A DNA stretch of 63,145 nucleotides, counting the filler, from Perkinsus chesapeaki ATCC PRA-425 (Eukaryota; Protista; Perkinsozoa): the NCBI GenBank assembly GCA_013115145.1. It is 7 parts of 7 records of this genome, joined end to end, with 100 filler letters (N's around TTAATTAATTAA, not from the genome) between each part and the next. Parts side by side here need not be neighbours in the genome. Positions count along the whole stretch, not along the records: positions 1,255 to 21,177 come from JAAPAO010000631.1; positions 21,278 to 52,058 come from JAAPAO010000432.1; positions 52,159 to 54,689 come from JAAPAO010001585.1; positions 54,790 to 57,513 come from JAAPAO010001531.1; positions 57,614 to 59,250 come from JAAPAO010001850.1; positions 59,351 to 63,145 come from JAAPAO010001355.1; 1 more part is not named here. The stretch is one strand, 5' to 3'. Position numbers and translations under genes: made by a program. The notes beneath the pieces were generated by a model. That model worked only from the letters and a program-made list of their open reading frames with translations. It made no database searches and was not told the DNA's origin. Below, piece by piece: positions 1,856 to 62,800 of the stretch. Position 1 is the stretch's first letter. Each line of letters begins with the position of its first letter.

Positions 1856-4094
1856 GGAAGGGCCATATGCGCCACGCTGACAGTGATGGCGTGGTCATGG
1901 CGACGGAAGAGACAGTATATAAAAAACTCGCTAGTATGAATAAAAATGTTTGATTGCATCGAAGCTCAGTATCATCATCGTAGAGAGACGTGATGTCCCG
2001 GAAAGTCAGCGAAATACTGCTAAGGCGAAGACGATCAAGAGACGCTGCTGAGATGGCCATTGGGGCATTCGGAGTAGAGCGCGGCGCAGATCTCTCCAGA
2101 TGGAAGCACAGCAGGGGAATTCGCACCTTCGAGTACTTCCGGAGGCTTTTACATGCCGATGGTTGAGTAATAACCTTGCACATCTGGCTGTTGTGAGTCT
2201 ACAAACCACACTCGGCGACGTTTGTATGTAGTCCGACTTTGCACCGTTTCGAGTCCTGCACTTTGTGTGGCGCAGCCGGGGGTCCGCGGTGATCCAAATG
2301 CATGATGCATGCAGTGATGAGGCACCCAGTGAACACGTGTATCTCTTATGATTTTGGCCTAGCACTACATGAGGAGACTTGGTTCTGAGTCACGCGCCTT
2401 CGTAACAGTGGGATGATGCAGGTTATTTCGTCTGCGGGTAGCAGCGTGTACAGCACGTCAGATTCTCACACTTCAGACGAAAAGCTCCGCGGGCTGTTGA
2501 TCTGAGCCCTCCAAAACGGACACTCGGAGCACATCACGCGTTTGTCGTAGGAGTGTATTGCATACATTCCCACCCTAATAGTGGCACCCTTAGTCGATGC
2601 ACTGTATTGACTCAGGGCAAACAAGTCTGCGCGTCGCTGCAGCTTTATTATGAAGTGTTCATGCGGCATGAACTTCATGCCCATTAACTTGCATTATGCA
2701 TGAATCATGCAATTAACTTGATGGAGCAGGTTTGGAGTTGGAGAGCATCCGGAGCTACCGAGAGTAATACCTGAAATACATACCCGCAGTAGGAAATTGA
2801 AACTACATAGCCTGACCGAGGCATCGCGTATACCTCGGCTTCAGGATGAAGCTAACCTTTGCTTCAGTAAAGGTAGAGCGTCTAGAATGTTCAGTTCGGC
2901 CGCACTAGTAGGGCTAATACCTGGGTAAATCTTTCTGACTTGGAGAAGTGCCTTAGTTGATGACACACTGCAATTTACTATCTACTGAATTATATTAGGT
3001 GACATCAAGTGGGAATTGTCTAATTGATGCCTTGTACTATGATAGTTCTACTATCCATTAGATAGTACAAGGCATCAGTTAGGTAAGTGGATAGTATCCA
3101 ACATCATCGATGCAGCGTGGAGCACTTTATCGATTCCGGGGCAAGTCGAGGGTGACATCCACAGTGCACTGATTCGTGATGCGTACTGTGTTGCACAGGA
3201 ATCTGGTATGCTGTAAGGCTTAGTCTTGCGGGAGATGAGACTATCCAACTGTTGATCATCCATGGTTTGATTACGCTGAGTTTCCAGCAGTGCGCTGCAA
3301 TTGCAAGAAGGATGCGTCGACGTCCGGAATTGAGCCTTGCTGCTCATAAACCATATTTGTGCTGCTCCCGTATATCACTGATAAACATACTCCTGAATGG
3401 AGCTGTTGCATTGAAGGAAAGTATTGAGGAAAGGCGAGCAAATTATGAATCTACTATCACCAACAGTTGAATAGTTCGCGGATCTGAGTATAGTAAGCGA
3501 GGGACCACCTCGGGTGGTGGACACCGGGTCGATGAGTTTTCCACGCGATGCTCAATTATTTTGGTGTTAAAAGGAGCTTTTGACAGTACAGAAATAAAGA
3601 GACCTACTGATAGCTATACTCCCTGCTGGAGCTAGCATAGGCTCACACTGCCCCCGGTTACTACGCCTGTGGTTCTCAGCATAAAAAGCTGGAAAGGAGA
3701 CGATAAGAATTTATGAGGCTTTAGAATGGATTCCCACACAAACCGTCAGATCCTCCGGTGTTCGTAAGATTTAGCAATTAAATTTTACCCGCCATGACGT
3801 TTCTTGTACTGATGACACTTTTGACAAGGCGTCTTCGTCTGGATTGTGTTTGCCACATCGGAACTATTTCAGTCATATTAGTCATTGCTGCATCAAATAC
3901 AGTATATAACACGGGTTCGCTCAAAGGGAGTAGTCTTATATCTCAAATCCGTTACTACTACAGTCCTCCAAATTAACTTAGAATATCACGTTTTTGTGAC
4001 CATTCTCCGCCAGATTTGCGACTCTATGCCCAAAACTCAGAGAGTCTCGTAAAACTAGTAACTTACTAGTTACAGAAAAAGTCAAATTTTCAAA

Positions 4095-5165
4095 ATGAAA
4101 CGAGTTCCGACTATCCTACTCTCATTTGGATGGAGTGAGGCAATCGTCAGGCTGCCGCTAACTGACGACGGTCACTACTTCATGACCGAGCTACTTGTAG
4201 AAAATCAACCATTGGGTATGGTGGTGGACACGGGTTCGATAAGCTTCCATGTGATGTCAAACCATCTGGTTTCTCATGATGGCCTGAAAGAGCGGGCTAT
4301 GGACGCATTGCAGAAGAAGAGCTTGAAAGTGAAGAAGTATGAAAATGTGCGAGTTTACATGGTGAGTGTCCAAGGTTCACTATCGTTACCATCAACTCAC
4401 AATATTCTCGAGATGGACTTCAATGTTGGTATTGGTGCACGAGAGGTGACACCAAGCGGCGAGGTGAGAGTATACCATGTGCATTCACTATTGGGCTTGG
4501 GCTTTCCTCGTCACCCATCTGGGTCATTCTTACAGCAGCTCATTGCTCATGGAGTAATTCAACAGGAGTATTTTACTGTGACGGTTGACAGATATGGTAA
4601 TGGCGAAGTACTCCTGGGTGAGCTGAAACCGCAAGACGCACAAGAGGCTGGTGAACTTGTCTATCTTCCGATTTACGTAGACTCACGTCACCGCAAGAGA
4701 TGGGAAGTTTATGTTACCAACATTCGCTGCTATTTTTCACCAGAGCGCTTTTTCAATGTGAAGGTGGAAGCGCCCGCCTTGATAGACACCGGTGCTCCTG
4801 GCATACACGGTCCGAAGAACCAGATCAATTTGCTAATAAGAGCCGCTAGTTTTGCTGCGAGTGAAGTACGTGGCAAGAACATAACAACGAACAACTCGCG
4901 CACGGTGTTCTATATTTCACTCGATGAAGTGAAATACTTGCCTAAGCTCCACGTATTCTTCAGCTTAGGAGGTGGTAAGACTATGTCCCTTGCCATTGAC
5001 CCACATCAATACATCAATCACGTGACGTCACCATCAGTCAAGTCGCGCCATGTTTTCATGGGGGCTAGCCAAGGGTGGTCCCTCGGTATGCCGTTATTTC
5101 GAGGTCGGTCCGTTCGATTCGACGCGATAAAGGGGGCCATAGGACTGGCTCTCACGGGAGCTTAA
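4095..5165 (+). CDS. Secreted pepsin-like (A1) aspartic protease, complete and intronless
   Basis: 356-aa ORF with a signal-like N-terminus, VVDTGS and LIDTGA catalytic motifs, SLLGLGF, and C-terminal WSLGMPLFRGRSVRFD. Confidence 0.92.
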   Translation: MKRVPTILLSFGWSEAIVRLPLTDDGHYFMTELLVENQPLGMVVDTGSISFHVMSNHLVSHDGLKERAMDALQKKSLKVKKYENVRVYMVSVQGSLSLPSTHNILEMDFNVGIGAREVTPSGEVRVYHVHSLLGLGFPRHPSGSFLQQLIAHGVIQQEYFTVTVDRYGNGEVLLGELKPQDAQEAGELVYLPIYVDSRHRKRWEVYVTNIRCYFSPERFFNVKVEAPALIDTGAPGIHGPKNQINLLIRAASFAASEVRGKNITTNNSRTVFYISLDEVKYLPKLHVFFSLGGGKTMSLAIDPHQYINHVTSPSVKSRHVFMGASQGWSLGMPLFRGRSVRFDAIKGAIGLALTGA

Positions 5166-5363
5166 CAAACACTCTTCATAATTATGTTGACTGACTGTGT
5201 TGTATTACTGTAGTTGTTTATCGTTCACATGGGCCGATGATGTTACCGCAAACATGAAAGCTTTGTGTTCCCCGAGTCGTGAATAAGGGCAGAAACTTCA
5301 AGACTTCTTAATCGAGTCACTCAACGAACCAAACATTAAAAGAAGTCCATAAAATTGATATCA

Positions 5364-6911
5364 TCAGAGTCTCGAAACCGAAGGCATCGAAGGCGTGTCA
5401 ACGTTGATCAAATGGGCTCTCAGAATAGCATGAAGTTCTTCTTCACATTGCATCATCAGGGCATGGCCAGATTCTGGCAACTCGATCACTTTTGTGAGCT
5501 CGGGTATTGACAGTCTAGCGACTTGCTTCGACGACTCCGGCGGAACAAGCTTATCCTTCCCGCCATAGACAATAAGAATCGGCATCTGACACAATCAGGG
5601 AACTGGGCTGACCAGACACTTCGAGTGGTGAAGTTACCCGCAAAACATCGTGGAACTGCCTAATTCCTTCTTCACCGACAGAGTGTTGTAATAGACCAGC
5701 AATCTGCTTTAAAACATCGGCAGCTTTGGTGTTTGGGAGCTTCTTGTACGCGTCGGCGACGTCAGGCGGTAAGCTCTCACGGCCGATACGACTGAAGACC
5801 TTGACTATTTCAGTCCTGATAAAACACAGTCCAAAGGTTAACCTGCTTACGAGAACTTGCTTGTGTTTATGGCGCCACTTCCTTGGGAAAAGTATCCGCA
5901 GTATAGGATGGTCAGCATTCACTTTGCCTGTAGTTGGATCCCTCAATGGGCCTCCTCCTCCTGACACTATCAGAATGAGCATATCAGTCATTGCGCGGAG
6001 AGATGGTAAACTAGACAAGCTTGCTTTGCAGTGGGTTGTTATCAAAACCAGTGACTTAATTCTGAACCGCAGCGACTTCTGAGAAATACTTGCTGGTGAG
6101 AGCGAAGTGTACGTCCGCTATACCTGGGCTATCATCAAACAAAGCCTCTGTGCAATCATACCGCCCATGCTGACTCCCATCAAATGGAAGTCGTGCCACC
6201 CACAGGCTTCAACGCATGCGATGGCGTCTTCAGCCATGGACGTTATCGTATGGGAGCGCCTGGAAAGAAAAAGATTTGTGACATTGCTAATACGAGGTGG
6301 AGGAAATCAACTACGCGCAGGATCATCCAATAGCATCGAATAAGCTCATTCCTCAAAGACCAAAGACGTTCCAGAAAACCCAACTGCAGTTTGCTTGGTT
6401 TTAACAACCGTAATGAAGTAGGGAGACGCATGTGAGATCTAACTGATATTTAATATCACATGGTTTGCCGTAAAGATGTAACTGAGAAGCGTACAACAGT
6501 GATACTTTCAGATGCATGATAGCTGAAATAGTTGCCTATTGCTAAGATACAGCTGGCAGATGAACAGAGTGTCATGTAGGAAATACATGCATAAATACAT
6601 TGAATGCCTCGAGCGCGTTCGACTGTACATGGATAATTTTCCCTTGTCTTTAGCAGGGTCAGCATAACTAAATCCGACACCACGGTTATCGACAAGGAGT
6701 AGCTCATAGCCGATGGAAGCTAGGAAGGCCGTCTGAAATGAGCAGTCTGCGAGGAATGGTCGATGAAGCAACTCACTTGCGGAGCCCAACATATATGTGG
6801 CATAGCAAGGCCCATAATCATCACTATGTGACCTTTAGCAGGGGCATCCTCATTTGATTTCACCACGGTATGATATATACGGTATCCATCCGGCCTGGTG
6901 ACCCACGGCAT
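5364..6911 (-). CDS. Alpha/beta hydrolase (multi-exon)
   Basis: Exons give MPWVTRPDG...IVMIMGLA, LLLVDNRGVGFS, nucleophile elbow HLMGVSMGGMIAQ (about 6150-6200), acid GGKDKLVP and SGHAL; GT-AG introns. Confidence 0.88.
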
Positions 6912-7399
6912 CCGAACGGGTAACAATAAACTACAACCAGAGCAGGAGCATTTCTGGAATATCTCTCACACGGACTCCGACGAGCGTTAGAAGCCGACAG
7001 CGGCGTGAATGAGCCTTACGCTAATCTGTTTATGTTGGACAATATTGCGGAAAGCACTCACCCAACATTGGCTTCACTCGACACAGTTTAACAGTAAAGA
7101 ACACCTTAACCGAATGTCGTGTAATGGACATAAATGGGACCGGGAGAAATGCTTCCGGTGTCAGTCTTTACGGCATGTCGACCGGGAGATACTCTGGGAT
7201 CGTTAAGGAACCTAAAATAGAACATATAGTTTTGGAGGAATGGTATCCGTTTTATAGATAAAAGGACGGGTAAATATTATTATATGAATAGATGATAGTA
7301 TACAAGGGAAGGCGTGCAGAGAAAAAACATGCCGCAATCAGTTAACGTCAATAAAGGCCCCCTCAACCTGATGGCTTCAGAAGTGGCTTTCGGACAGCT

Positions 7400-8900
7400 A
7401 CACATCAATGAGCACCCACTACGCTACTGAAATAGTTACAGAGGCAACGGTAACTACACTCTGGAAAAGTAGGCGCTGCAGATCCATGCTAACTAAGGGC
7501 TAGTAGAGAGAGTGCCATAAAGAAGTGCTGACCTTCTTGTTCTTGGAAAACTGAACTTGGCGCTCGAGACAACCTTGGTAGAATCAAACCCGCTGGGATT
7601 AGTGCTACTGCCTAAAACAGAAAATATGCCCTTTTCTTGATTGCCACCCATATCTCACTCAAAACGTCACGCCACTGAAGCTTGGCCTGTGGGCCTGAAG
7701 CATCCGAACTGCTCGAGGGGAAGCTGCCGAAGTATTCTGCTGGCCCAGGCACCTCCCTATTGCGATAGCGAAGGCTCGATACCTGAAATCGGAAATCGTG
7801 TTCCATCGTGTTCTCCCTAGATCGAAAGTCCACAGAAACTCATTGTTGGTCGATTCGATAAAGCTATGAAAAGGAGAAGCTTACAACTCCCCATAAAGAG
7901 CGGTCGACACTCGCACTCGGCCATAAGACTGCTACATGTATCGCTCAGTCATCTGCCTCAGAAATAACAACTCGTACGCAGCACGATCCTTCGGAACGCA
8001 ATTCTAGCCTCGAGTGCGGCGTTCGTTCTTCGCCTTTTCATCGTTGACAGACGGTCTTAGAACTACTCACATGTGTTGGCGAAGAAGGCAAATCTCAAGG
8101 AGGGTCCCATCTCTTAGGAGCTTTTGATTTCTATAATGAGGCGCGGAGGATACTGCAAAGCTCAGCTAAGTAAATTCCTCATGGGAATACTAACAGATAT
8201 ACCAACGACTATGCCAGACGATCTAGGGACTTGCCTCATCGTGCGGCTTCTGTAGCAAGTATCGATCTGCTCGACCAAAGGAATAGCTTGCACTTCTACT
8301 AATGGTTGGATGCACTTTCATATGTGTTCGACTTATTCCTATAGTTCTATCTGCACCAAAGATACCGTTAAAAGCACTAAAACGTAACCGACCACTTCCA
8401 CGGGCCTTCCGCCAATAATGAGTGCTCCCGAGCATCGAGCTTCCGACGCCTCTCACACTGACAATATACCTTATCAGCTACAACCGAACCAACGGAAGGG
8501 CTACTCGGCAGATAGGGTCTTGTCAAGTATGTGCTGCCGGATTCGCTCAACACAAGCCTCTCTGACGGCCTTGTGGGAAGGCTTCTCAGCTCCCAGCTTC
8601 ATCGCCTAATTATACCGTGGAAGGATATCAGAGTTTAGATGGTACGATTCTTTGACGTTGCTCAAGTGTATCGGCGCTGATATCTTTCCGTGCTTTATCG
8701 ATCGCTGCCCTGACTTCCTGAGGTATGCCGATAGTTGGCTCCGAACCTAATCACCACACTTGTGCATGCGTGCAAAAAGATACTCCAGAGCTTACAATAG
8801 CGTTTCCTGTCTGACATGTTCAACCATCCAGAGGTGCCTGTAACACTAGTAGCCTGATAGCCGCTGGCATTGCTGTTGCCGTGGTTGAATATTGTCATTG
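7400..8900 (-). CDS. Possible multi-exon hypothetical gene, or 3' extension of the upstream E3 ligase
   Basis: Exon-like open segments bounded by AG/GT (e.g. AMKLGAEKPSHKAVREACVERIRQHILDKT); no recognisable domain. Confidence 0.3.
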
Positions 8901-9228
8901 AATAGAGCAACCTCTTTCACCACTTCCGAAATTGACAGCCAAACAGTCGGCATGAATCACATCAGCACTTGATGGTAATAGGGGGTTTATAGGTAAAATG
9001 TGAAGGAATGATAACATATAGTAAACGAATGCAAATGTAATTATAATGGTAAATTGTTAACAACATAATCAAACTTAGTATAATCACCGCTCTCCGCCGG
9101 ACAACAGTCGACTAGTCAACGATGAAATGCCGCGGACAGCTAAACCTGAACATCGATAAATGACCAATTCCGAAGTGACTCCCGAAGTAATTTTAAGAAA
9201 CCGCCCAAGTGTTCATTAAATACACTTA

Positions 9229-12200
9229 CCCGCAGTCGCCTGTAGTGCAGTGCCAAAGGCTCCAAAGATCTCCTCGGCGACGCTGCCTGGTTGGTGCAAC
9301 AGACCAGTTCGACCAGCTCGTATAATACGGTCCACATCATAATGTATCGCGCTAGTCAGCTCCTGAAAATCTTGCTATCTTGACAAATCTTGCATTTCCT
9401 CAACACACCGCTATGATCTCCTTGTTCTCCTTAACTGCTAATATAATGCACATCATTTCCCGCCGTCTTTCTGGTGAGGAGACTGCTTCGTGATCGACTT
9501 TAAGTAGTGATGTTAGCAGCCTCAGAGATTTACCCAGACTCGACGTCCAGCTCGACAACAGGCGTATTGTTCTCATATACCTAAAAATCAACAAAAGATA
9601 CTCTTCGAGCCGACTCGATATGGGTCGATATTTTCCAGGTAAAGCATAAGTGCCGAGTAAGAGCTAAAGCGCAGGTAAGCAGCATTGAACAAGTGAAACA
9701 GAGATCCGATAAGGCTTGTGAAGTGATAACTTACCCTGGTGACGCTGGTGTGAAGTAGAGAACCACAAATGAACGGGCAAGAACGCCCTGAGCTGACTTG
9801 CAGAAATCAGAGGTTTCTTCCACTAGCGCCTGAAGGATGAACATGTGGAAATAATACGGATGATTTATAGACAAGAAAACGAGAAGCTTATTATGTAGCG
9901 GACTCGTCAGTATCGAAATCGCGAGTAGTTGTTAAGTATCGTTGTCGAGTAGCGGGAAGTACTCTGCAATCTGGCTGACACATTAGTATACCTAAAGTTT
10001 CGGTAAAAAAGTTTCGAACATCGGGCTTGAGAAGTCCTTTTCGTTCAGCACTCAACTGATAATTTCCTCAGGCACATTTCGAAGGGACAGTCCGCATTTG
10101 TAGTGTTCAAATTAAAGCCTTAGATCTCGTAAGCTGCATACATTCTCTTAGCATCCCTGACTCCATTTTGATTTGTTTCAAGAGAGGTCTCCTTAGAGAT
10201 ACTTAAGTCTGGCCAACTCAGTGGGGTGCTGCTACCCGAAACCCAAGATATTCAACGAAATTCTCACCTGTGTTGTTGGCTCCACTTCAACAGCCTCACA
10301 AAGCCTGCCCCACTGCTCGGTGGAAACCATCTCATCCAAATCCTCTGTGGCTTGGGCGTATCCTCGAATACAATCAGCTTTCAAACGCGAAGTCAAGAGC
10401 TTGGACAAAGCAGCACTTTGCTGACCTACACGAGAAAGTGAATAGGGATAGTGATAACAGCTCTCCTGTACACTGCGCAACATATTCTTAGAAAGTCGCG
10501 TTTCACCAGGTTACTTTTCGATTGAACCAGCGTCGTTGCTCCTCAATCCTCGAGCAACACGAGTTGCTAAGAGTATATAGAGTAGTCTATTCCTGCCTAC
10601 TAGGTGCTACAGGAATCCTATCCCATCCAAGCATAATATTATCCATAATATTTATTCCTTTTTTTCCATACAAGAATAAAAAACACTTCCCTTAACTTCA
10701 AGAGACTCCTTAAATTGAAGGAGTTATTTAAAAATTACGTGATGTTCTATTATTTTGTAACGGGTTAACAACAACTCTTCTATTATTATAATAGAAGAAG
10801 GTATAGAAGGAATTATTCAATCATCTTTTTTACTGGGAGGCGGGATTTAAATTATAATAGTATTATAATTTAAATCCCGCTTCCCAGTAAAAAATGAAAA
10901 AAGGCCTCACTTTTAACACTCGACGTGGAACCTCTTCGCTCGCTGTTGTTGTTCTCATTTCCCATACAGGTATAGTGTGATGGCTTCCACCGGGCTCCAC
11001 ACATATAACAGAACTCACCACCACATTGGCGACATGTCATATGGTTGCAACCATACGATCCTGAACACAATAATATCATCTGCGCTATTCGCAAAGTGAT
11101 CGAGGAAATTTTCCTCAAGTGCAAGCAAACGTTGTCATTTCAGTAATATAGAGCAAGTTGGTTATGTCGATGGTGTTATAATTTATAATATAGAGTTGGT
11201 TACTGTTATACAATATATGATATAGAGGTACTTGGTTATGTCGATGTTGTTATAATATATAATATAGAGGTACTTGGTTATGTCGATGTTGTTATAATAT
11301 ATAATATAGAGGTGCTTGGTTATGTCGATGTTGTTATAATATATAATATAGAGGTACTTGGTTATGTTAACACTGTTATACAATATATGATATAGAGTAG
11401 GTTCGACTGTTCAGTCGAGTTCACTAAGACTCGGGCCAGTAAATATGACACCGAAGAAACTAATGGCAATACGACCTTACGCAGAATGGGTGCAGAGCAA
11501 TCGATGCATTTGGTAGTGTGACTTTGAACCCAACCCTCAGACTCTTGGTCCTCAGCGCTTCGCTGTGCCTTCATCGCCTCTTCAAACTGCTCAACCTGCC
11601 CACCTAAAACCGATACGGAAATAACCAAGTCAAAGCAACTCTATTGCAAAGGTAAATCATTTAGTGAATCGATCCATTCATGACATTTCATCCCACACTT
11701 GACGCTACTCTTAAGAGTGATACATCCAAGCACGCTGCACGCATGCGCACAATTATTGACATTCAATTGTGTATTATTCTCCCTACTTAATACTCAATCT
11801 CCTTACCCACTTACATTTAGCTGGTTCATGAGGATCTTTCAAACAGGCGAAGCAGAATTCATGCCCGCAAGTGCACCGTACGGTAGTAGCTGTGGATTCA
11901 GTGCTGTCAAGCTTCACGCTTCGACCACATCCTGGAGCCGGACACCAACGAACCTGCAAGAAGCTCATCTTACGAGTCCCGTATCACCGTGTAAGGCAAA
12001 TATCTTTGTGCAATTTCAGACAATATTTTCGCTGTAGAGAAATTCGCGTTGAATAATATACCCTATATTTCCCGCGTTCACCAGTTCGGTTCTATTGTTA
12101 GTCGTTAATACCACTCCACTTGGAACGTAAAAACGAATGAGAAATTTCCAAACTCTTCTACTGGTAATAGCGCGCGCCCGTCTAATCGATTATTCCGAGT

Positions 12201-15200
12201 TGCCCGGTCGGCGCGAACATACGCAGATCTGCGAAATCTGTCAGATTTAATCTGAAGCTTGCTCCAGTTGTCCATAAACTCGCCGCGCACTCTTAGGAGG
12301 TCCCCAGGCTAGTCAAGCTAGTCAACATTGATAATGCTACTTGTTCCAAAATAGCGCCTGCTGTCTCTCGATCGTCCCGCTTACGTCTTTGGAGACATCA
12401 ACATAGTTCTGGGCGCGCATTCTTTCACATTGCTCGGCTGTGTGGTGATCGACCAGCAGTTTAACAACCTGAACAATGGACCCTTTTCTTACTGCTGTCG
12501 CCGGTATAACTTTTGGTGAACTTAGACAAAACGAGTGCGGGATAAATCTCTACCCGGGGATGTCTCTTGGCCTAGAGTGGAATCTGGATAGTGGAATGTA
12601 TTCCGGTATTCCTGGGTAGTGGAGTACTGGCACGGAATCTGGATACTTATCGCTCAAGTTTAAATGCGTTACTGTCAAGCCCAACATCGCAAAGGCATCA
12701 TTATCGCAACTCTTGACGAGGTCAGCACACTCATAAGGATGAATCACAGGATTGCCGTTTAGGACTAACTCGCTTAATGCAGATGATAAAACGAGTTTGG
12801 AACGTTTCAAGTAAAGTAACTTTGAATAGCTCACCTGATCTGGGATTCCCACACGACACCCTTCGGAAGGACACACCAGCAATCTTGCATCACCCTCCTC
12901 AATCCTCACCTGGAAACAAAGCAACGAAATCAAGCTTGTGAATCGTACACATGCTTTCACGTAAGATGGAGGAGAATAACGCGCCAAGGAAATTCAATAA
13001 ATTTTTGGAACCCGCTCCTATACTTCACGGTCGGGTCGAAATGTAAAGTAGTGAAACACTCGGCATGGAACGAGTACACGATCAGTAACGAAACTTTCGT
13101 TACGAAAGCTGTGTGGAAAACTTGCTCACTTTAATATGGCAAGCCAGACATTCATCGCATACAGGATGCTGGCACGGCAGTAGTTTATAGCATTTACTAT
13201 TATCGTCGGTGAGGTCATCAAAGCACACTGGGCAACGGAGAGGGCAACGTGGAGAGATACCTGAACAGTAACAGTGTGCATCATACACGCCGAAAATGAT
13301 TACCCGGATATCTGAAATAGCGTTATATATATGGAAATAGTCGACGTTGGTATAAATATTAGTTCATTATCCACATTTTTATGGTTTACAGAATGTGAGC
13401 GAGTGAAGAAGCAATGCTAGATAAAGCATTAGTGTATTCAAATGACATAGAAATTATGTGGTATGAATATTCTTAAATATTCTCAACTCTAAACATCCTA
13501 TGATGGGATACGGTGGAATACGGTCCTATGAATATATTAAAAACCTTACCAGAAGTCTGCAGTTCATCTCCCACTGATGTGTCTGCTGTAACCGAATCCG
13601 TAGAAGAAATACCTGTACACAGGAGGTCGACCATCATGTGTGCTTCAGAAACTTCATCACAATTTCCGGAATAGTCTCCAAAACCTTCAAAGACTTCGCC
13701 ATCGAACTAGCGAAGTCACACGGAAGACAGTCCTCAAACTGTCCCCATATTGTACTAAGTGAAAGTTACATAGTTAGATTGGTGGTATTCCAGAAGTGAT
13801 GCACTGATTGCCAGATTAAAAAAGTATACGTTTAAGCCGAAAACGTACACTTAACATGTAGTTATATTTTTCGACTAGTTGTTTGAGTTTTGCTTCCAGT
13901 CGTATTTTCCTGACTTATGGAATTCACTCACCTGGTGTATTTTTCTCCCTCTCGTTCGCCTCCTCAAGAAGATGCTTAGGTATCTTACTAACCCCAGCTT
14001 CCTTCAGCGCTCCAATAGGATCACTTTCAAACCTAGAGGAAGCCCTTTGATATTTTCGTGGCGCGCGACGCTCACGCTTTCGCAGCATCCTCGATCTCAT
14101 ATCGATGATATTTGAGGAGGTTCTCTGCATCAGAGCTGCTGAGGCCGCAATATAGGGACAACTGACAAAAAACTCGTGATTAAAAGCAAAGCAGCATCCA
14201 AGCCAGAGCCGATCTTCATACAAGCCTCGTAGTGCTTCAAGCATTCTAAGGGATCGCTAGGCTGTTAGACTTAGAAAACCAACAAATTGCATGCGCAGAA
14301 GTTTCCAGCGTTTCCAACTAGGACGATCATCTTCCCGTTTCGAAGTGTAGCAAATTTTCCCAATTTATGGCAGCGATCTTCGAAACCATCTGTGGTCAGT
14401 TTCTCAACAATGGTGGGACGTGAAAAGCGGACAGTGATGCGAATATAGCTGACCTCAGCTGTAAGCCGTTGAATCTCGAGTATTCGATCATCGTCGCTCT
14501 CCTGTACAATCGCGGATGAGCCAGCGCCCATTGACCAACTTCCAAGGTTGGTGCTCGTGCCTAGCAAAGCAACACGTGCGTCCATAACGTGTAGGGTGAA
14601 GGCGTATTCCGCGCTGGAGCCTAATGCGAATTTTGGCTGTTTGATAGGTGAATGGATCGATCTATTGATATAGCCAGTCAATCTAAATCGATCGCTTGAG
14701 CGATTACTCACGTCGCTTACACTTCTCATGTGTCTCAAATGTCCGATTCTGCTGTAGAACTTCTGATGCCCGTTCGAACCTCTCCCGAATGCCGCCTAGG
14801 CCAGTGAGATTGCTCCATGAGAGCGATCGTAACTGAATTGAACAGTAAAAGTAAAAGTAAAATGATAGATTTGCCAATCGTAAGTTTTAGTAATAGTAAA
14901 CAAGGTGAGAGCCCATTGGCTCGAAGAGAGCGTGTGTCTTTCAGACCTACACAACCTTGATCATCATCAATAACGAAATCCCGCTAGGTGAGAATCTCAA
15001 CGGAGAAAATGCGAGAGTAGAAAGGCGTACTGTTATACAAATTATAATGTTTACAGTACGCGACATCTAGAAATGCATCTAGTAATACACACAGCGGTAA
15101 TATGTGATGTAATTCCAGAAAAACTCGGCCATTGCACCTTCCTACGCGAATTTGAAAAAACGAAGTCAAGGCTTTGAATGATGATAGGGACCGGATTTCT

Positions 15201-51985: not shown

Positions 51986-52058
51986 CAGAGCTCTGCATTC
52001 GGGTCCCGACATCGTCGGGACCCGAGGTCCGACCCGAGCCCGATCGGGTTTCGGGCCT
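51986..52058. mobile_element. Terminus of a hAT-like element (CAG... start, CCGA/TCGG subterminal motifs), cut by the linker
   Basis: CAGAGCTCTGCA start at an insertion junction; repeated CCCGA/TCGGG; 12-bp hairpin 51999-52025. Confidence 0.45.
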
Positions 52059-52841
52059 NNNNNNNNNNNNNNNNNNNNNNNNNNNNNNNNNNNNNNNNNN
52101 NNTTAATTAATTAANNNNNNNNNNNNNNNNNNNNNNNNNNNNNNNNNNNNNNNNNNNNTGGCGCCTCGCACCGAACGCACTCACAATTGAGCCTCGTCTC
52201 ATTTTACCACACTGCCTAGCGTTATAGTGCATACCGCGAGTAGAGCTGATACTATCAGTTGATGAACTCTTGAGAACAACTGTTACTCCTTTGTTGTGTA
52301 ACGCAACGAGTAATCAATACTACAGCCCCGGGGCTGTATCTAGGAGCGCACAATCTGCACTTAACTTATACACGCATGCACAGTCTTTGTGCGCAACTCA
52401 TTAATATTGTGCTCCGAAGCTGTAGAAGGAATGGCGAAGGTTTAATACAATGGGCAACGCTTCAGGACATAACAAGTAATGGGAAAATCAGCAGTATAGC
52501 GAGATAGTAAACAATCTGGACCCAGTGGGATTGTGGCACAATATCAGCTTGGCAACGCTTGCGTCGCCCCATTCGCAAACCTGCTGTCTGCACCTTCATC
52601 TTCTAATCGTTGATGACTTCGAGGGCACCGGGATCACTTAGTAGGATTAGACGGTTGCGGAAAACCACTAATCATCTCGCATAACTCGTTATCTGTTTAC
52701 AGAGGACGTGGTAGCCAGAAATCCTGTTGTTTCGCAAACGAACAATCCGCTCCACAGGCGCCGCGCCATGGTCGCCGTTTCGAGCATATGTTATTAACAT
52801 AACGTTATTGCATATTCCTTTGAGGGAATAAAACGTCGGAA

Positions 52842-53270
52842 TTGGCAGTTATTTCAAATAACTTATTTGCAAACATGAACGCCATGTTTATTATCGCCGC
52901 GGTCATTGGCCAGACCATTTCAGCTCCAATATATCTCACTGACAAATATGTTCGCTGTTTATCGTTTACCAATGCAGTAGTCTACAGTATCCAGTTCTTT
53001 GATAATCGTACGATGGAATTAATAAGTAGAAGAGAAGGCCTGCCGGATAAGAAATATAAATGTGTATATAGACTGCAAGAAGTCCAAGATTATATCCAAG
53101 CCATCGTTGGTGGTAAAGAATGCAACGACTTGATAAGATCGTATCCACAAATTCTGGACGACACTTTTCTGAGTATGAGAGTGATAGAGACCGATGCAGG
53201 GCGTCGTCTTGTTGTGATGCAAAAGGGAGACAGGGTGTTCTACAGACTCCCCCTCGCACCAGAATGCTAG
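52842..53270 (+). CDS. Small secreted protein, intronless
   Basis: MNAMFIIAAVIGQTISA signal-like leader, about 130-aa mature part with Cys residues. Confidence 0.7.
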   Translation: MAVISNNLFANMNAMFIIAAVIGQTISAPIYLTDKYVRCLSFTNAVVYSIQFFDNRTMELISRREGLPDKKYKCVYRLQEVQDYIQAIVGGKECNDLIRSYPQILDDTFLSMRVIETDAGRRLVVMQKGDRVFYRLPLAPEC

Positions 53271-53751
53271 TCTATCTTAATCATTAAGACTTAATGATGG
53301 CACCATTAATAGAGATGAAGCGCCTCAACATCCCTCTTGTCAGACAAGACTTGTCTCGACGATCTCAAGTTAAGGTTCTTGGGTCAGATTCTGAATCACC
53401 TCAGCTAGACAATGCATTGCCTTTAATACCAATATTGCTAACTAGTACTAATACTTTAATTCTTGAATATTCTTGAGCTGTGACATTTGCCCATCGTAGC
53501 TTTTCCGTCATATATTAGTCTTTGCTGTGCAGGGCTGCTTTGTGCGCCACTAGATGTAGGCAAGTTGTGTGTCACAATGTCAATGTCAGCCTAATTCTCT
53601 TGTCTGACGATTAAGATCGATTAAGATGGAGTGCGCTTACCGTTGTAGCGTGAGTGATTACTCCCACAGTTGTACGTATGTACACAATTATACTCGTCTA
53701 AATACGGCCTGTTGCGCTCCTAGTACGCGGACGGCTAACTGAACTACTATC

Positions 53752-53880
53752 ATTGGTGCCCAGACCCAGGGTTGACGCCGTTCAAGTTAGAGTCAAGGTT
53801 AGAGCCTTTCGCTGGCGACAAGGACGTCGCCCTTTGGTTACGTGAATTTGAGACGGTCGCGGCCGCAAGTCGTTGGACTG
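53752..53880 (+). mobile_element. PBS + gag N-terminus relic of an LTR retrotransposon
   Basis: ...CA-T-TGGTGCCC (PBS-like) followed by LEPFAGDKDVALWLREFETVAAASRWT, a typical gag start. Confidence 0.6.
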
Positions 53881-54047
53881 TGTTATGATTGTAGGTCCTT
53901 TGGATGCGGCCGATACGTTCTAAGTTTGTGTTGCTTGATGTCCCATTATGTCTGTGTAAACTGTCCCACTTAAGCTTGCTCCGTTTATGAAGCTAGTGGA
54001 TCGAGTGTAATCATATACGAATTACGTCAAGTTTTATTTATTTCAAT

Positions 54048-54548
54048 ATGACCAATCTTTTGAGTTCCAGCGCAAACGGTACGGATCACAACAACAATGG
54101 TACCCTTCCGCAGGATGTGACCGCTACCTATGAGCCTTCTGTTGTCCCCTTGCCTGGTTCGACAACACGAAGCTGTGCCCCTGAAGTGGCCATCGATGCT
54201 GGAACGGCCCGCCGTATTTTGTCCGAGGTTTTCAAAGTGGAGCACGGTCTATTGGTATTTATGACTCCTGATGAAGTGAATACTTTTATCAACTCGGTTG
54301 AGGACTTGCCAACACGCCTGGCTCTCCGGCGTTGCTGGGCAGTGGTGTCTGCCGAAGGTCCTGTGCGTGGACTTGATAAGAAGCTGTCGTCTAAGGTTCC
54401 GCCGGCGGTAGCTGGCCCAACCTATCATGCTGAGCTCCCTGTTGGTTCTAGGCGGAGACCTGCAAGTACAGTCTCTTTTGATCATCTGTATGCTGACTCT
54501 CAAGGTCAACACAGTGATATCAAGACGATGACTGCTATTGGTTACTAA
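54048..54548 (+). CDS. Hypothetical ORF, possibly TE-derived
   Basis: 166-aa open frame; no motif recognised. Confidence 0.35.
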   Translation: MTNLLSSSANGTDHNNNGTLPQDVTATYEPSVVPLPGSTTRSCAPEVAIDAGTARRILSEVFKVEHGLLVFMTPDEVNTFINSVEDLPTRLALRRCWAVVSAEGPVRGLDKKLSSKVPPAVAGPTYHAELPVGSRRRPASTVSFDHLYADSQGQHSDIKTMTAIGY

Positions 54549-54789
54549 CCAATAGCAGTTACTAACCAATGGTTAGCTTCCCGTACCAGAGGACCAGCCT
54601 TTCCAAGGTCCTTGGACCAAGGAAGAGATGATCAACGAAGTGTTGCTTACTTCTGTCGAGAGTTGGCGTTGACTGGTCAACTCTATGCTNNNNNNNNNNN
54701 NNNNNNNNNNNNNNNNNNNNNNNNNNNNNNNNNTTAATTAATTAANNNNNNNNNNNNNNNNNNNNNNNNNNNNNNNNNNNNNNNNNNNN

Positions 54790-55957
54790 CAGAAAATAAT
54801 GGTTGTGACATAACCATATATTCAACACCAAGAGCAACAAGTAATGATGCTGCACCACATAACGAACCAATACAGAATCTTACCAAAACAGATGGCATTA
54901 AATTATACTTTTTAAGCAATGGGAATAGAACTGTATCAACCAATACACTAGTAATAACAACAGCAATTGGATCAACATTTTGCATCATCTGTGCTGGCAT
55001 ATTCCAACCAAATAGATTAGTATCCATTTTCTTACCTTGGGTTAAAAATGCAGTTGTCATATTATTATATGCCATAACAAATGGTATAATGAGGGAAAAT
55101 AAAGGCACTAAACGGAATAATGCCTTCGCATCCTCAATAAAACCATCCTTAAAACGACCACCATTAGAAGCCTTATTCTTTTCCATAGAACATCTTGTCA
55201 ATGAAAAGAATATAACTTTAAGAATCTCCAATACTGCAGAACCTTGCGGTTTTGGTTTAACATAACGACCCATCATATTACCAACAATAAATACAATTGT
55301 AGCAATTATAAAGGCAACCAAAGGGAATAAAAAGCTTGCAGTAAACGATACAGATTCCACAAGAATTGGTGTAACAATACCGCCAACAATAGAACCAAGA
55401 TTTATAGAAGCATAAAAATAAGTGTAATATCTTGTAATAAGATCTTTATGCTCTTGAGGATGAAATTGTTGAGCACCCATAACATTTACACAACTTTTAA
55501 TACCACCAGCACCAAATGCAATGAGGAATAAAAGTGATAAATGTATCATCCATGGTTGACTTATTGAATGTATTGTTGAAAGTGTTAATAAAGCCAAACC
55601 AGCCATATATACGAATGAGAATACTAATATAGTTAAATATAAGCCAAGTATAGTATCCGATATAACAGCTGATAATAATGGTGTAACATATAATATAGCA
55701 TTAAATGTTGATATATAAGAATTGGCTGATGCATCATCAACCCCAAGATACTCCTTCAAGAATATTTGAAGGTTTGGCGTTAAACCATAGAAAGCCAGCC
55801 GTTCACATAGTTCTTGCAATAGAACAAATAACACGGCTTTTGCCATTGGATGCTTGTAGTAGTGATAAACATTACCAGATACATCAGTCCAGGTATAAGG
55901 CCTTTCACTATTCATAGGAGTATTAGGAGATGGGGTTGGTGAGGAGGTGATAGTCAT
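54790..55957 (-). CDS. POT/PTR2 proton-dependent oligopeptide transporter (3' end lost at the linker)
   Basis: QELCERLAFYG (ExxERFxYY), GAGGIKSCVNVMGAQQF (PTR2 signature), FYASINLGS; multiple TM helices; intronless over the visible part. Confidence 0.95.
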
Positions 55958-57728
55958 CTAGAGTAATAACTTATATTTGAATGATGATTATTTTTGCTAG
56001 CATAATTGACGCTAGATTGAGACACTTAGTCCTATTCATTATTCAATCACAATTGTCTCCATTGAGTGGAAGGGGACAATCCTTCAAGCTAGCTCAAACC
56101 AATCAATAATGAGGGGGAATCGGGCCGAGGGGACACCAGTACGTGGCGAAATAAGCACGTCGACTCGTGGTGAAGCTGTAAGTCATAGGACTATGCACCA
56201 TTTGATGATGTAGCTCTACTAGTAACGAGTGATACTAGTTAATAGGCTGTACCGTGTATTTGATAAGAGCCTAATTGTATGCCATAACCGAATAATGACG
56301 CCGTAGACACGTAGAGCTATCGGATGAGATGCAAATATCTAACCCAAAAAATGTCTCCACAAATGTCTTTTTATAGGCGTAGCGTTCGCATGGCATCAGA
56401 CTACGCATGACAATGCAAGGTGTAAGCGTATAGATGAGTTGTTGCCGGATAAGGTTGAACGAATCCATCCCTATAGTTGCCCATGAACGTATTTCACTTT
56501 TTTATGTGTAGCACAAGATATTGTGTGGAGCATGAAATAGCGACTACATTCCGAGGACTGCTACAGTTTTTTTGGGGCTAGGACAGATTCACCGTCGAGT
56601 TGGGTGTATCTCGCTCGTCCTAGTGCGCTGCGAGATATCCAGCCGTTGCTCACGAGTTGCAATGCCGTTGGCTTCAACTCTTGCGGCTAGCTTAAGAAAG
56701 AGCACAGATGGTAAGGCATCATTAGGCGCCATCCGCTTAATTTCTTTGCTCCGGTTTCGGAAGGTGTCAGTGTCGCCTGCCACGCCGAATCGACACCTGT
56801 AAAGTCCTGTGACTATTGTCATGTACAGTGGCAGCACACTGGCATATGATGAGCAAACGGTGCTCACCCCATGACTTACACCACCTGTCTCGTCTTCTCT
56901 CTCACTCCTCGGAAAAGTAGCGGTTTTACCGAGTAAAATTTACACCTCCCACGGAAAATGAGATATAAAACACATCACGTCAAGTCGTTAAAGACTATTT
57001 CACCGCGGAGGCATTATGAAGGGTCATAATTTATATAATATCATACTTTTGGGCATGGCACCTGATGAAGGACCTGATGAAAGGGTGCTGTTATAGGGAA
57101 AGCAATTCAACATTGTAACTCCTCTTGAGGCCACAGAAGACCAAACAGAAGTAGACTTACGATGACGCAACATAGTTGTTTCCTGGAACGTTTAATCTAC
57201 TAGAAATATGAAATGTAGTAGGATATCGCATAAGCCGAACTCTTTGCAGGAAAGCTACAAGTATACAATCAACATCACACCAATATAAATTTTTGAGATA
57301 GAAGGGGTTTGGATAGAGCCACGCAATGAGCGAGAGCGAGAGCATGGCGTGTAATTGTATAGTGTTTGTGGTACATGTGTTGGCATATCATATTCCACAC
57401 CAGATATCCAAACTGCGTTAACCTAAACACTCACGGTTAAAGGGTACTTGGATCGATTAGTGCAGAGTCCTTCGTACGTGAATGCATCTTCCAAGAAAAT
57501 ATAAAAAGGCACCNNNNNNNNNNNNNNNNNNNNNNNNNNNNNNNNNNNNNNNNNNNNTTAATTAATTAANNNNNNNNNNNNNNNNNNNNNNNNNNNNNNN
57601 NNNNNNNNNNNNNTAAGGTGTTGTCGTATTAGATTATTAATAGTGTTGAATTCGCCTGAGCGAGATCGATTCACTAAGTGCCTGCTTCAGAGTACTAACT
57701 CTACTACCGAAGTCTCAAAAGACACCAA

Positions 57729-58337
57729 CATGGCTAACGCTACCAATACTGGGAAAGGCAATATCAACACACGGCCAGCCGGTGATGGGAAAGTTTCCGG
57801 AGGGCAATCACCGCCGCAGTCCGAAGTATGTCATATCGGATCTAGGCTACAGTATCTTTATTCCTAGGTTTTTTTTCAGGGAGACCTGGTTCGTCTTGGG
57901 CAAGTATCAGTTCGAATTACTGAAAAATCTGGTAGCCTGGCGCATTTGATGGGGCCGAACTACTGGCGTTGCTCATCTCAGGCAGACGAGGTATCCGGTT
58001 CGAGAGTGAGTCTAAAAAAGCGAAAACTTTAAGCATCGCTTTCGCTGATGACTCGTCTTCCTACACTGTCGTTATTCCTCCTGGTGGGCACAGATCTTTC
58101 GAGATCAAGCCTAAGCACTACAACAAAGATTCTATCCTCTTAACATCTGACGTTGGTGAGCAGAAGACGCTTCCTCTCTTGTGGAAGACTCTCCCGATTT
58201 ACAGTGAACAAAATACAGCCAATGGCACGAGTGCCTTTAAGACCGTATCAGCTCCACCTAATGAGACTCCACAGAGGAAGTCTCGTCGGCTTCTGACTGC
58301 CAAGAGAACGCCGTCGCCTGACTTCGTTCCCAGGTAA
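57729..58337 (+). CDS. Possible spliced hypothetical gene or TE ORF
   Basis: Open segments separated by a GTATGT...CAG intron-like stretch; no motif recognised. Confidence 0.3.
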
Positions 58338-58875
58338 GGCGGCTATTCCTTCGTTCTTTGACAAGAACTTCTTGTACGTGGCACGAAAACACTTTGTTTC
58401 AGCAGCTTTCTCTGTTTCTCGCGAACTTGCTTTGGGGTTATGTTAGTTGGTCAATTTGGCCTTCATGCGTGCAAGCTTTTCATTAACATTGTTCCGTTAA
58501 TATTTCCGGAGCCGTGACTGGCCTTTTGCGTGCCACGAGTAGAGTATAACACTATACCTGTCGCGTGGAGTAACACAGTTAGTGATTGACTCACTGTGAG
58601 TCTCCCACGCGTGGCGCGCTACGCGCCACATATCGGCGACGTCACGCCGCACTGTCTGCGCTCCGAATTGCGCCGGGCTGCAAACAGTTGCTAAAATTGA
58701 TAAACTGCGAGCCCCAGTTTGCGGCTGCATAATATGCAGTGCATATTCTATATAATGAACCAGCGCTCACTACCAGAGGAACGTATACAGCCTGTGTAAT
58801 ACAGGATATCAGATTTACAGAGATTCTCTGTTAATGCTGTACCAGGTTTTTAGTGTCACCCACTTTCCCACTTAA

Positions 58876-59250
58876 ATGTACTACCCAAGGCGCAAGTGGC
58901 AGCATGTCATGACGTATGACATACAAGCCGATAGTAGCGACCCGTTCTGGTCGGCCCTGGTGCACTATATGCCACCTCACACTTGTAAGCAACAGTATAA
59001 TCCATCGAATCCTAATGAGATGAGGTGGGAGTGTGCTGATCATACCGGGTGTGACAGAAAGATTCGCATAGTCAAAGAGGGGGCTCAAATGAAGATTTCT
59101 GTTTCTGGTAATGTCTCCACTTGGCGGATATTGTATGGCTTGATTCACCCTCTTTTCAGGAGAACATACTGGACAGCCAAGAGACTTGAAACGAGTCCGG
59201 CTCCCGCCTCATGTCGAGCAGCATATCCTCAATGCCGCGGCTCGAGGAGA
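58876..59250 (+). mobile_element. MULE-type transposase N-terminus (WRKY/GCM1-like Zn finger), cut by the linker
   Basis: KWQHV...RWECADHTGC...ISVSG|EHTG after removing a GT...CAG intron. Confidence 0.65.
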
Positions 59251-59360
59251 NNNNNNNNNNNNNNNNNNNNNNNNNNNNNNNNNNNNNNNNNNNNTTAATT
59301 AATTAANNNNNNNNNNNNNNNNNNNNNNNNNNNNNNNNNNNNNNNNNNNNTATAATACTA

Positions 59361-59794
59361 CAGGGTGTCCCGAAAAAATGTGCCTTTTTGAATAACTTCC
59401 TCAGGAGGGCGAATATTTCGACGACACGTGCGACGTTCGAAAGCTCTCGAGAGTGACTATCTAATGGCGGAGGCTCTGCCGCAGAGGTGCTTCATTTCAG
59501 AGTATCTTTAAATTGGACATCTCACCACTGACAGCTAAAGATTATTTAATACCGCCGCTCAGCAGGGTGGTATGGGGCAACATTTACAAGGCAAAATCTG
59601 ACATTTTCCATTGAAACCGATTTTTTTTGAATTTTGTAATTCAAATTTCTCGTTAACCCAATCGAATATCATCATGGGCCGTATGGCGTTAGATAGTCAC
59701 TCTCGAGAGCTTTTGAGCGTCGCACGTGTCGTCGAAATATTCGCCTTCCTGAGGAAGTTATTCAAAAAAGCACATTTTTGGGGGGGACACCCTG
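59361..59794. mobile_element. Tc1/mariner-type MITE, 434 bp, about 105-bp TIRs, TA duplication
   Basis: TA|CAGGGTGTCCC...GGGACACCCTG|TA; the arms align in inverted orientation over about 105 bp. Confidence 0.92.
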
Positions 59795-59810: not shown

Positions 59811-62800
59811 AAATCCTTTTGCTTTTCCCCAGGACCTACTGCCGGAACTAGGGCGATGTTGGGCAAGGACAAAGGGCTTTGGGAACGCATGAGTAAGCAG
59901 GAGGCTGAGGCTCGTGCTGCCAAACTGCAAAGATTGAAGGAGGAGGCTGCTGAGAAAGAGAGACAGGAAATCGAGGCGACTAAGGTACGGAGCTATTTGG
60001 TATTTGAAATTGGATAATTCTATCAGTTTCGAGCGCCACCGGTTTGCAAGGCCAGAGGGGCGTCCGCCAATACGAGTGTTGTGTCGGTTTCATCCGCTGC
60101 CACTGGAGGAGGGCAGAACAGTGTCAGTGTGAATGAGGTCGTTGAGAGGATGAGCAGTAGGGCCGGCTGGTATGAGGAAGAGAATGGTCTTGATGGGTTT
60201 AGAGAACGCTGTGGTCTCACGTAGAGCGAGGTTGGAACAACTTAGTCAACAATATTCAGCTGAAGAGAAGGCGAGGATCGAGGCGACTAGGGTAGGCTTG
60301 GTGGGAGGAGGGGGGTATTGGGATAAATTATATGCAGGGGTGAGAGGAGGGCTCGAGGCTGGTTATTATTGAAGATTAAGCAGAACACTGTACTAGATAG
60401 ATTGGCTAACAAAAACGATCACAAACGTAGTTGGTAAGGCTACGACTCGTAGCCTACCAGCCCTATAATANNNNNNNNNNNNNNNNNNNNNNNNNNNNNN
60501 NNNNNNNNNNNNNNNNNNNNNNNNNNNNNNNNNNNNNNNNNNNNNNNNNNNNNNNNNNNNNNNNNNNTGTTTTAATAAAAACCTTTCTATTGTTCATGTC
60601 CCCGTAGGGAATACATTTACTTTGTTCTATCGCAATGCTATGAGTCTCTTTTATTAATCTCCTTCCCATCGTCGCTTCTTTCAGTTTAAGAAGCCAATCA
60701 AAAATAAAGCAGCGGGGGAGGTTAATATAAGGAAGACTACAGATAGATTGTGAGCTTTGGGGTGCAATGCCATACTCATTATCTGAGGTTGATGCGTGCA
60801 TTATAGAGAGCGATTAGATACGCTGAGGGAGAGAAGAGGAGGGCGAAATTGGAGCAAATGCAAGAGGAAGCTGAATTGAAGGAGATTGCAAAGTGTCAAG
60901 GATTCAGGCCCAAAACAACACATGACGGTGAGAGCGGCATGCGTTCAGCTTTATAATATCCTCGCGAGTTCTTGTGGCGAAATTATTTCGACGAGAAAGA
61001 CTTGAACGTCTGCGGTTGGCGAGTTGGTGAATTAGCGGCATTATACTTGCATAAATGCGTTGTGTTTTATGGATTGTGTATTTTGATTAATTATAAATAC
61101 TTTTTGGCCGCCAGGTGTAGTTGGAATAATCTCAGCGACCATTCTGACATTTTCTGCGTGGAATATTGTAATTGACGAATCGCTGGGAGTGGTTATTTCC
61201 GGCGAATCGGGCAGTTCTTTGAGCCTCAAGCTGCTTTGAGTTTGGCCTCGATTCAAGCTGAACATTTGGTAACTGGTCAGGCTCAGGTAATGTCTTCCAG
61301 CCTCCACCAAGAATAAAGAAGGCTGTTGAAGGAGCAGACAAGGTTTGTAATCGAAAGGTCCCTGGTTCGATCCCCACGACCAACATATTTCTCAGGATAA
61401 AACCGACAGTACGAATCGAAAGAGCTTCGGCCATCAGCGTCTGTAATTCGTGGCGCGCGTGAATATGGCAGCGGAAGTATTCTGGAGCAGGTACGCCGAG
61501 TCGAAGGCTCGGAAGGAGCGGATTGAGAAATTAGCTCTGGCGATCAAAGCTGAAGAGGACAAGGAATGTAAGCGGTGTGGAAGCGTTGCAGCAGTTTGAT
61601 ACGCTTGTCGTGAGCTGTTGGGAAGGATAGGAAATCGGACTAATGTGTGACGTAATTTTGCGGAAGCGCGATGNNNNNNNNNNNNNNNNNNNNNNNNNNN
61701 NNNNNNNNNNNNNNNNNNNNNNNNNNNNNNNNNNNNNNNNNNNNNNNNNNNNNNNNNNNNNNNNNNNNATATAATTTTGTGGATGGGTTTGTGTTACCAA
61801 ATTTGGCATTACCAAGTTCGAGAGGTGGCAAAGGGAGATAAGTGTTGAATTTGACGTTATTATTACTTATTAATTTATCAAATAGTGACTAATTAATAAT
61901 TGTAAATAGTATGCATTAGATGACACAATACGATGCTTAGGAATAACACTGTTCAGTGACCTTATTCAATATAAGTCCCGGGTTGTGACCTCACCAGGGA
62001 CTGGTCTCCGTAGTGGGCAACTTGATGATCATCATGCTCGTAGGCACCCATCAACCGAATCTGCGTAAATCACTTGGCCGCTATAAACCTTCTTCGGTTA
62101 CCAACGCGTCACTAAGTGGGATGAAGTCCCCTACGGGTGGAATGAGCGTCCATGAAAATCTGTATAGGGAAAGAGCCACGAGAGAGGAGCGCATAAGGAA
62201 GATGCGGGAGTAAGAAAAAATAGTTTACTGAGTGGCGAGACTTCCTTTCAGGGAGAAGGAAGCATTGGAGGTGTCTAGTTTGGCATCGTCACGTGTGACG
62301 CCGAAAACCCCGACGAGAAGGGACATTCACACAACTCTGTAGAGGCGAGGGCAAATCTGGTGGGAATGATTTTGAGCAGGCATGATGAGGTTTATAGGAA
62401 GAAAGCGGAAAGCGAGGCGAGGGAGGTCGAGAAGGAGGAGATTGTTCAGAACTTTTTGGATTCGACAAGACGGACTTCTGCTAGACCAGGACTGCACAAT
62501 CGCTTGTAGGTCACTTCGACGGTTGTAGTGGAATGTGTAGTCCTTTCGCTGAGGGCTTATTCGTGTTTCATTCGGATTCCTGTCACAATACCTTGAAGCT
62601 TCAAAAAATGCATTCTTGTTGAATGGGTAAACTGGGTAGTACAGCTCGAGTGGTCTCGTGGAACGCTACTGGCTCATCCAAGCCAGGCAGCTTCGTACAA
62701 TTTCGGCAGTAAATGCAACGGGGCGGCGGCGGTGGTCGGCGTTCAGTGTTGGGATACTCGGGTAGGTTTGAAGAGTCTAAGTTGAGACACGAAGCATTGA

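Follow-up and report, generated by a model that had tools for sequence, protein, structure and literature searches.

The stretch of DNA analysed here (the window) comprises 63,145 nucleotides of Perkinsus chesapeaki ATCC PRA-425, in which parts of seven contigs are joined end to end; 62,326 bases remain when the filler letters are set aside. It contains retrotransposon reading frames, the remnant of a hAT transposase, a MULE transposase frame, Tc1/mariner-like elements, an aspartyl protease, a peptide transporter and a long AT-rich tract. It also contains a recurrent 22-bp double palindrome in which the first seven bases of an 8-bp unit S are followed by the reverse complement of S and then by the last seven bases of S, that is S[1-7]+rc(S)+S[2-8] with a unit length k of 8. 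We refer to this sequence as a scar. Scanning all non-N bases and grouping the copies by exactness yielded 20 exact copies, 12 with one mismatch and 16 with two mismatches, 48 in total or about one per 1.3 kb. The first-pass annotation had listed 15 exact and seven one-mismatch copies, every one of which is correct at its position; both lists were incomplete, and the density of one per ~2-3 kb proposed there was too low.

Exact copies (scar coordinates are unstranded) lie at 12234..12255, 13087..13108, 20534..20555, 23603..23624, 24245..24266, 24440..24461, 24496..24517, 41946..41967, 42600..42621, 52848..52869, 53275..53296, 53335..53356, 54602..54623 and 58725..58746. Three more, at 22134..22155, 25967..25988 and 35496..35517, fall within retrotransposon reading frames, the second of them in the integrase region. 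The copy at 23502..23523 adjoins a one-mismatch scar (23479..23500), that at 43381..43402 is nested with two further odd-centred palindromes (centres 43361 and 43378), and that at 50645..50666 has an unscarred copy of its 8-mer 12 bases downstream, with the same four preceding bases. The exact copies added to the earlier list are those starting at 12234, 22134, 25967, 35496 and 52848. Besides 23479..23500, single mismatches are found in the copies at 3034..3055 (within a longer inverted duplication, 3020-3082), 18709..18730, 19887..19908, 20076..20097, 24643..24664 (overlapping a two-mismatch scar at 24626), 25002..25023, 41850..41871 (overlapping another at 41866), 43647..43668, 58581..58602, 58784..58805 and 60439..60460, with 18709, 20076, 23479, 24643 and 58784 having been missed before. 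The two-mismatch copies start at 2570, 15813, 16355, 18026, 18300, 19327, 24626, 24803, 33471, 41866, 42794, 47030, 47532, 52787, 56924 and 59466, spanning 2570..59487. Related contigs that cover the one at 33471 show only three gap letters there, so that this copy is either shared with them or due to chance.

At 2657..2681 the pattern recurs exactly with k=9, the unit having 9 bp and the whole 25 bp. In four long-arm variants both half-units of a single 8-mer are present, joined by 2-4-base overlaps or by filler. At 10776..10894 the palindromic arms are longer and have filler between them; at 24521..24551 the right unit has two mismatches and the arms overlap by about 4 bases; at 36431..36486 the two arms, which surround one 8-mer, have 16 and 12 bases and meet in a 2-base overlap; and at 54531..54576 the left arm has 14 bases and the right unit is intact.

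In 100 local second-order Markov resamples (500-bp blocks) the k=8 pattern had a mean of 0 exact copies (maximum 0), 0.12 one-mismatch copies (maximum 1) and 1.46 two-mismatch copies (maximum 6), in agreement with the near-zero chance expectation put forward in the first-pass annotation. Since only ~1.5 two-mismatch copies are expected by chance against 16 found, most of these are likely aged scars, and the even spread of mismatches over the three arms (12/15/13) fits such ageing. The scar observation is confirmed as real, and the scars had previously been undercounted.

Among 128 geometries scanned, with k ranging from 5 to 12 and 0-3 bases lost per junction, the single peak is at k=8 when both junctions lose one base, and this unit has the length of the hAT target duplication, as had been suggested. 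There are 20 exact copies with this geometry and none with any of the 15 remaining k=8 geometries; with one-base loss, one exact copy occurs at k=9 and none at k=6, 7, 10, 11 or 12. A weaker excess is seen at shorter k when mismatches are tolerated (18 against 6.3 in the null for k=6 with one mismatch, and 36 against 10.5 for k=7 with two). Palindromes with arms of at least 7 bases are odd-centred in 82 cases and even-centred in 7. Of 22 sites whose 6-base core is perfect, 20 have at both centres the complement of the base that was lost, on which inverted P nucleotides had been predicted to be centred; none of the 22 has the form S+rc(S[2-7])+S, which hairpins opened on the other side would give. 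The classic plant 16-mer, with both inner bases complemented, is present at only two places in the window, both inside the AT-rich tract, and plain S+S occurs once outside this tract. Footprints that are very short or that delete bases escape notice where there is no empty site for comparison, and the 22-mer should therefore be regarded as the main outcome that can be detected, which need not be the majority.

The cleavage reaction of hAT transposases had also been likened to that of RAG. In V(D)J recombination the RAG nick falls at the signal border, and the opened hairpins likewise give palindromic (P) nucleotides at the coding joints; these palindromes are however even-centred, and there is no target duplication for annealing. 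The corresponding geometry, in which no base is lost, has 0 copies in the window for k=5-12, and here the likeness breaks down.

Exact and one-mismatch copies are spread over five of the seven contigs, as originally reported, and a sixth contig has a two-mismatch copy. Their clustering is mild, with 15 of 46 sites lying less than 100 bases from another (null 6.8, p=0.014) and a non-significant excess within 30 bases (6 against 2.1 expected, p=0.09). Abutting or overlapping scars at 23479-23523, 24626-24664, 41850-41887 and 43354-43402 look like old scars that were re-targeted. Of the frames tested in the window for the aspartyl protease, the peptide transporter, the MULE and Tc1, none carries an exact copy. 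The AT-rich tract (44100-49500) extends over 5 kb with a GC content of 0.23-0.27, a strong G skew and short tandem repeats, within a contig of 45% GC, and has no exact or one-mismatch scar.

Empty sites, second study and control loci

At two sites a scar could be compared with an unscarred relative, and at both it derives from a single S by the gain of 14 bases, as the first-pass annotation had supposed. In the alignment of a pair of paralogous genes a 14-column gap falls exactly at the scar at 20534, the paralogous copy at ~18209 being diverged. At 35497, 14 bases are absent from other copies of the retrotransposon in the sequencing runs X2, X3 and X4, which represent one sample. The scars at 35496 and 25967 coincide with frame changes of the retrotransposon. 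Three allele states had been proposed for comparison, namely single S, S-element-S and the scar; the single S was seen at these two sites and S-element-S at none. Over 24004-25149 related contigs are shorter by net 54/711, 40/593 and 42/440 bases, which is compatible with several missing scars. Equating these totals with seven missing scars was rejected, a related contig in X1 being already without 35 bases in 24004-24304.

Five sequencing runs cover part of the region, of which X1 may be the source and was left out of the replication count. Contigs from another study (X2 and X4) show 0 differences over 11420-19265, 19236-19386 and 19357-20980, and 11 scar sites recur in them letter for letter: three exact (12234, 13087 and 20534), three with one mismatch (18709, 19887 and 20076) and five with two. 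This second sample, being identical over 9.4 kb, could not show polymorphism or filled alleles well, and some bins of 23403-43402 had no coverage in it.

As a control we used 80 hAT-bearing loci from other organisms (444,710 bases), which were picked by other hAT proteins and are partly redundant and mostly short. They contain 0 exact scars and 3 with one mismatch, one of these a duplicate. Under one and the same filter, palindromes were 67 odd- and 74 even-centred in the control as against 77 odd- and 6 even-centred in the window. The scar pattern is not general to hAT-bearing DNA.

hAT elements and the origin of the scars

P. chesapeaki has a hAT transposase, P0122 (780 residues, partial, PF05699), which keeps the catalytic residues D211, D280, C329/H332, W473 and E748 (DDE, CxxH and W). 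In the window an internally deleted remnant on the minus strand, at 30812..31267, matches P0122 residues 189-261 at 96% and 589-667 at 94%, and the hAT fragment of the window has 100% identity with a P. chesapeaki protein on record. In other contigs 25149 is joined to 30812, and the segment 24005..25149 (minus strand), which holds 7 scars in 1.1 kb, is likely the 3' non-coding end of the same element. We take the terminus beginning at 24005 to be hAT-like; neither a partner end nor a downstream duplication was found for it in the window. Another terminus with subterminal repeats, on the plus strand at 51986..52058 and cut by the contig end, is presumably hobo-like, and a search for its partner end was equally negative. 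Neither relatives of P0122 in metagenome contigs nor relatives of alignment A2 in viral contigs were found.

The most likely origin of each 22-mer is an 8-bp site that gained 14 bases when a hAT-type element, once inserted there, was excised. Insertion would duplicate the 8-bp target S. On excision the transposase would nick one base into each flank and seal the flanks as hairpins, the tip being the complement of the lost base, so that the left flank would read S[1-7] and then rc(S), and the right flank rc(S) and then S[2-8]. A host nuclease would open both hairpins at a distance of 8 bases or more from the tip and in such a way that a 3' overhang is left, and the opened left end would carry rc(S) and the right end S. 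These overhangs could then anneal over all 8 bases, the surplus flaps being trimmed and the ends ligated. The uniformity of the scars would follow because any pair of openings at 8 bases or more converges on the same 22-mer. The first-pass annotation had derived the 22-mer in a similar way, from an 8-bp annealing of opened flanks that both carry rc(S), and the geometry works out exactly. The long-arm variants would result from joining at other points of these overhangs, and their longer arms fit a distant opening of the hairpin. The mild clustering fits local hopping of the element. Since no filled S-element-S site was found, the agent is something we infer, as are the presence of an element at each site, the hairpin, the distance of its opening and the enzymes. 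The original proposal of hAT excision is thus borne out as regards the unit, the centre, the single-S origin, the long arms and the hAT transposase, and falls short as regards an S-element-S site and the identity of the agent.

A number of observations weigh against excision of a hAT element. A search of the window for an 8-bp duplication combined with 14-bp inverted ends found no S-element-S, and no filled allele appeared among the differences listed in the comparisons with related contigs or with the second study, where the second sample is identical wherever compared. Explicit empty-site comparisons number only two, and the gap totals over 24004-25149 are not resolvable to single scars. In a limited word-seeded search only 1 of 11 P0122 matches came from Perkinsus, the one near-whole transposase of this family found there. 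One target consensus of known hATs is nTnnnnAn, and the scar 8-mers follow clearly neither this nor another, nnnTAnnn (PMC3499496); at 32 sites T3/A6 reach 30/64 (47%, p=0.001 uncorrected) and T2/A7 24/64 (38%, p=0.09), over a background of 27%, which makes for a weak bias. One site has k=9 instead of k=8, and the window harbours a MULE transposase frame. Finally, hAT footprints in Candida are of 28 kinds in 128 clones, with a longest P-arm of 3 bases (PMC5873905).

The weak target bias, the single k=9 scar and the MULE frame (40321..41619, plus strand) would suit another agent that is followed by the same hairpin-and-anneal repair, such as a MULE, Merlin, P or an undescribed relative of hAT, MULE or Dada elements. 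To our knowledge, no flank hairpin is known for Merlin or P. MULEs make 8-10-bp duplications as well as flank hairpins (PMC5499845), and both Merlin (8-9 bp) and relatives of Dada exist in P. marinus (PMC8101967, PMC3706591). On the other hand, Dada duplications measure 6-7 bp and its targets are RNA genes (PMC3706591), and more than 90% of Muta1 excisions in yeast are precise (PMC5499845); precise excisions would leave no trace in the window. Muta1 moreover makes duplications of 8 or 9 bp, whereas the exact scars number 20 at k=8, one at k=9 and none at k=10. We consider it improbable that such an agent made the scars.

The same end product would, by geometry, also arise in a hit-and-run event, in which an element is joined to its target and the intermediate is at once resolved into the same two hairpins, with seven of the eight gap bases filled, so that most scars would never have held a resident element. 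RAG strand-transfer products are resolved via target hairpins in this manner. As against some 48 scars, not one intact element flanked by an 8-bp duplication was found in the 62 kb, and a hit-and-run event would agree with the lack of filled alleles in related contigs and the second study. However, the available comparisons are poorly able to show filled alleles, and the hAT remnants and termini in the window indicate that stable insertions do happen. A one-base offset would in addition need a special assumption here, while it is the direct outcome of ordinary hAT excision. We give hit-and-run events little credence.

Replication template switching at quasi-palindromes (forward, back on the other strand and forward again) would dispense with a transposon altogether. 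In formal terms the scar is a triplicated sequence whose middle copy is inverted, as expected of such a product, and inverted repeats near the inferred empty sites are slightly longer than at random (5.55 against 4.77; 0/300 resamples). The excess fades, however, without four scar-adjacent sites (16/20 kept; 5.0 against 4.63, p=0.09). Junction microhomology is at chance level, with none at 29 of 40 junctions (null 75%), and the 8-mers are self-complementary no more often than by chance (p=0.17). Template switching would fix neither k=8 nor the one-base loss; the fixed length largely refutes it, and we regard it as very improbable. A library or assembly artefact can practically be dismissed: the window is a fragmented draft and short fold-back chimeras arise in some libraries, but 11 sites recur with 0 differences in contigs from the independent library of the second study (X2, X4), which refutes an artefact, the copies bear aged mismatches, and 14 bases are absent in related copies.

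Known footprints and repair genes

hAT elements are known to leave hairpin footprints (PMC5873905, PMC3499496, PMC1978519), and what appears to be new is the full-duplication product at the density observed in Perkinsus. With Ac/Ds, P nucleotides are centred on the complement of the element-adjacent base and most joints are microhomology-based (PMC5873905). As in our model, hairpin opening is followed by microhomology joining, which accounts for 85-100% of footprints in Arabidopsis and 88-89% in yeast, where the arms can reach 20 bases (PMC5873905, PMC1978519). Ac/Ds footprints differ in being varied and mostly short, and they were obtained in assays in plants, Saccharomyces cerevisiae and Candida albicans (PMC5873905, PMC1978519). 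In Perkinsus, by contrast, the main form that can be detected is one full-length product with arms that span the whole duplication and a gain of 14 bases, built up in a natural genome to about one per 1.3 kb.

TcBuster and other hATs studied in animal cells share the 8-bp duplication, the flank hairpins and short palindromic insertions (PMC3499496). Their insertions are of a few bases, however, and deletions run up to 50 bp (PMC3499496); their nnnTAnnn target consensus is not clearly matched by the Perkinsus scars. The MULE Muta1 has a flank hairpin, an 8- or 9-bp duplication and a duplication-dependent repair in common with the scars, but this repair is mostly precise, restoring one S without a 14-base gain (PMC5499845). 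In the open literature we found no such scars in Perkinsus and no single full-duplication product at this density, key footprint papers lying outside the search; published footprint tables from yeast or fungi may contain the 22-mer as one of the less frequent classes.

According to Table S1 of PMC6635534, P. marinus is scored as possessing Ku70, Ku80, Lig4 and the POLA/POLQ group, with RAD52 absent. Because Ku70, Ku80 and Lig4 are kept, a loss of classical end joining is not an evident cause of the repair bias, at least in P. marinus, and the hairpin-opening step is likely a better candidate for what sets this lineage apart. Artemis/Pso2 is not among the genes covered by the table, and the available part of PMC8062965 has nothing on repair pathways of P. 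marinus.

The excision of hAT elements might be conceived more broadly as a genus-wide process, in which a hAT-type transposase would visit sites throughout the genome, mostly without staying, and a non-Artemis opening at least 8 bases from the tip would, in spite of intact Ku and Lig4, stamp each site with a frameshifting gain of 14 bases, so that scars would far outnumber residents and form a datable map of transposase activity, exact to the base. We think that this broader picture is rather unlikely to hold in full. The natural rate and target range of excision are usually hard to measure because excisions are invisible or ambiguous. Here each event apparently marks itself, with an 8-bp target that is readable without an outgroup and three arms that age by point mutation. 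Excision rate, target choice and local hopping could be counted from one assembly, and the scars could serve as homoplasy-poor markers for the typing of isolates. They would also represent a class of frameshifting 14-base mutations that bears on gene-family decay and annotation, and they point to an alveolate parasite of shellfish that opens hairpins in an unusual way, a long way from the tip.

Other features of the window

Short frames with signal-peptide-like starts and several scars occupy 16700-20900 and 52824-53270; those at 17877-18485 and 20200-20811 are paralogous. These scar-bearing frames are candidates for a decaying family of secreted proteins. A CW-type zinc finger (PF07496, below the cut-off) forms the end of a retrotransposon integrase region at 21278-22544.

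A MITE (miniature inverted-repeat transposable element) with inverted repeats of ~110 bp and Tc1/mariner-like ends lies at 59357-59798, the two-mismatch scar at 59466 being just inside its left repeat. A search of the window for intact elements that combine inverted ends with a duplication of 7-10 bp gave none that stood up; matches at 59453 were rejected as lying within the inverted repeats of the MITE itself. The Tc1/mariner element at 36621-37685 has 176-bp inverted repeats and a DDE_3 frame and is multi-copy in all runs compared.

The single-copy depth of X1 is ~100 on the second contig (11420-20980) and 66-69 on the third (25404-43402), which perhaps reflects unequal copy number. A high-copy repeat at 31269-31662 and 49909-51985 has a summed depth of ~40x single copy in X1 and GTACAC-type subterminal repeats. 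The peptide transporter at 54790-55957 shares 94% identity with a protein of P. marinus and 86% with one of P. olseni, but only 75% with the best whole P. chesapeaki match among those listed.

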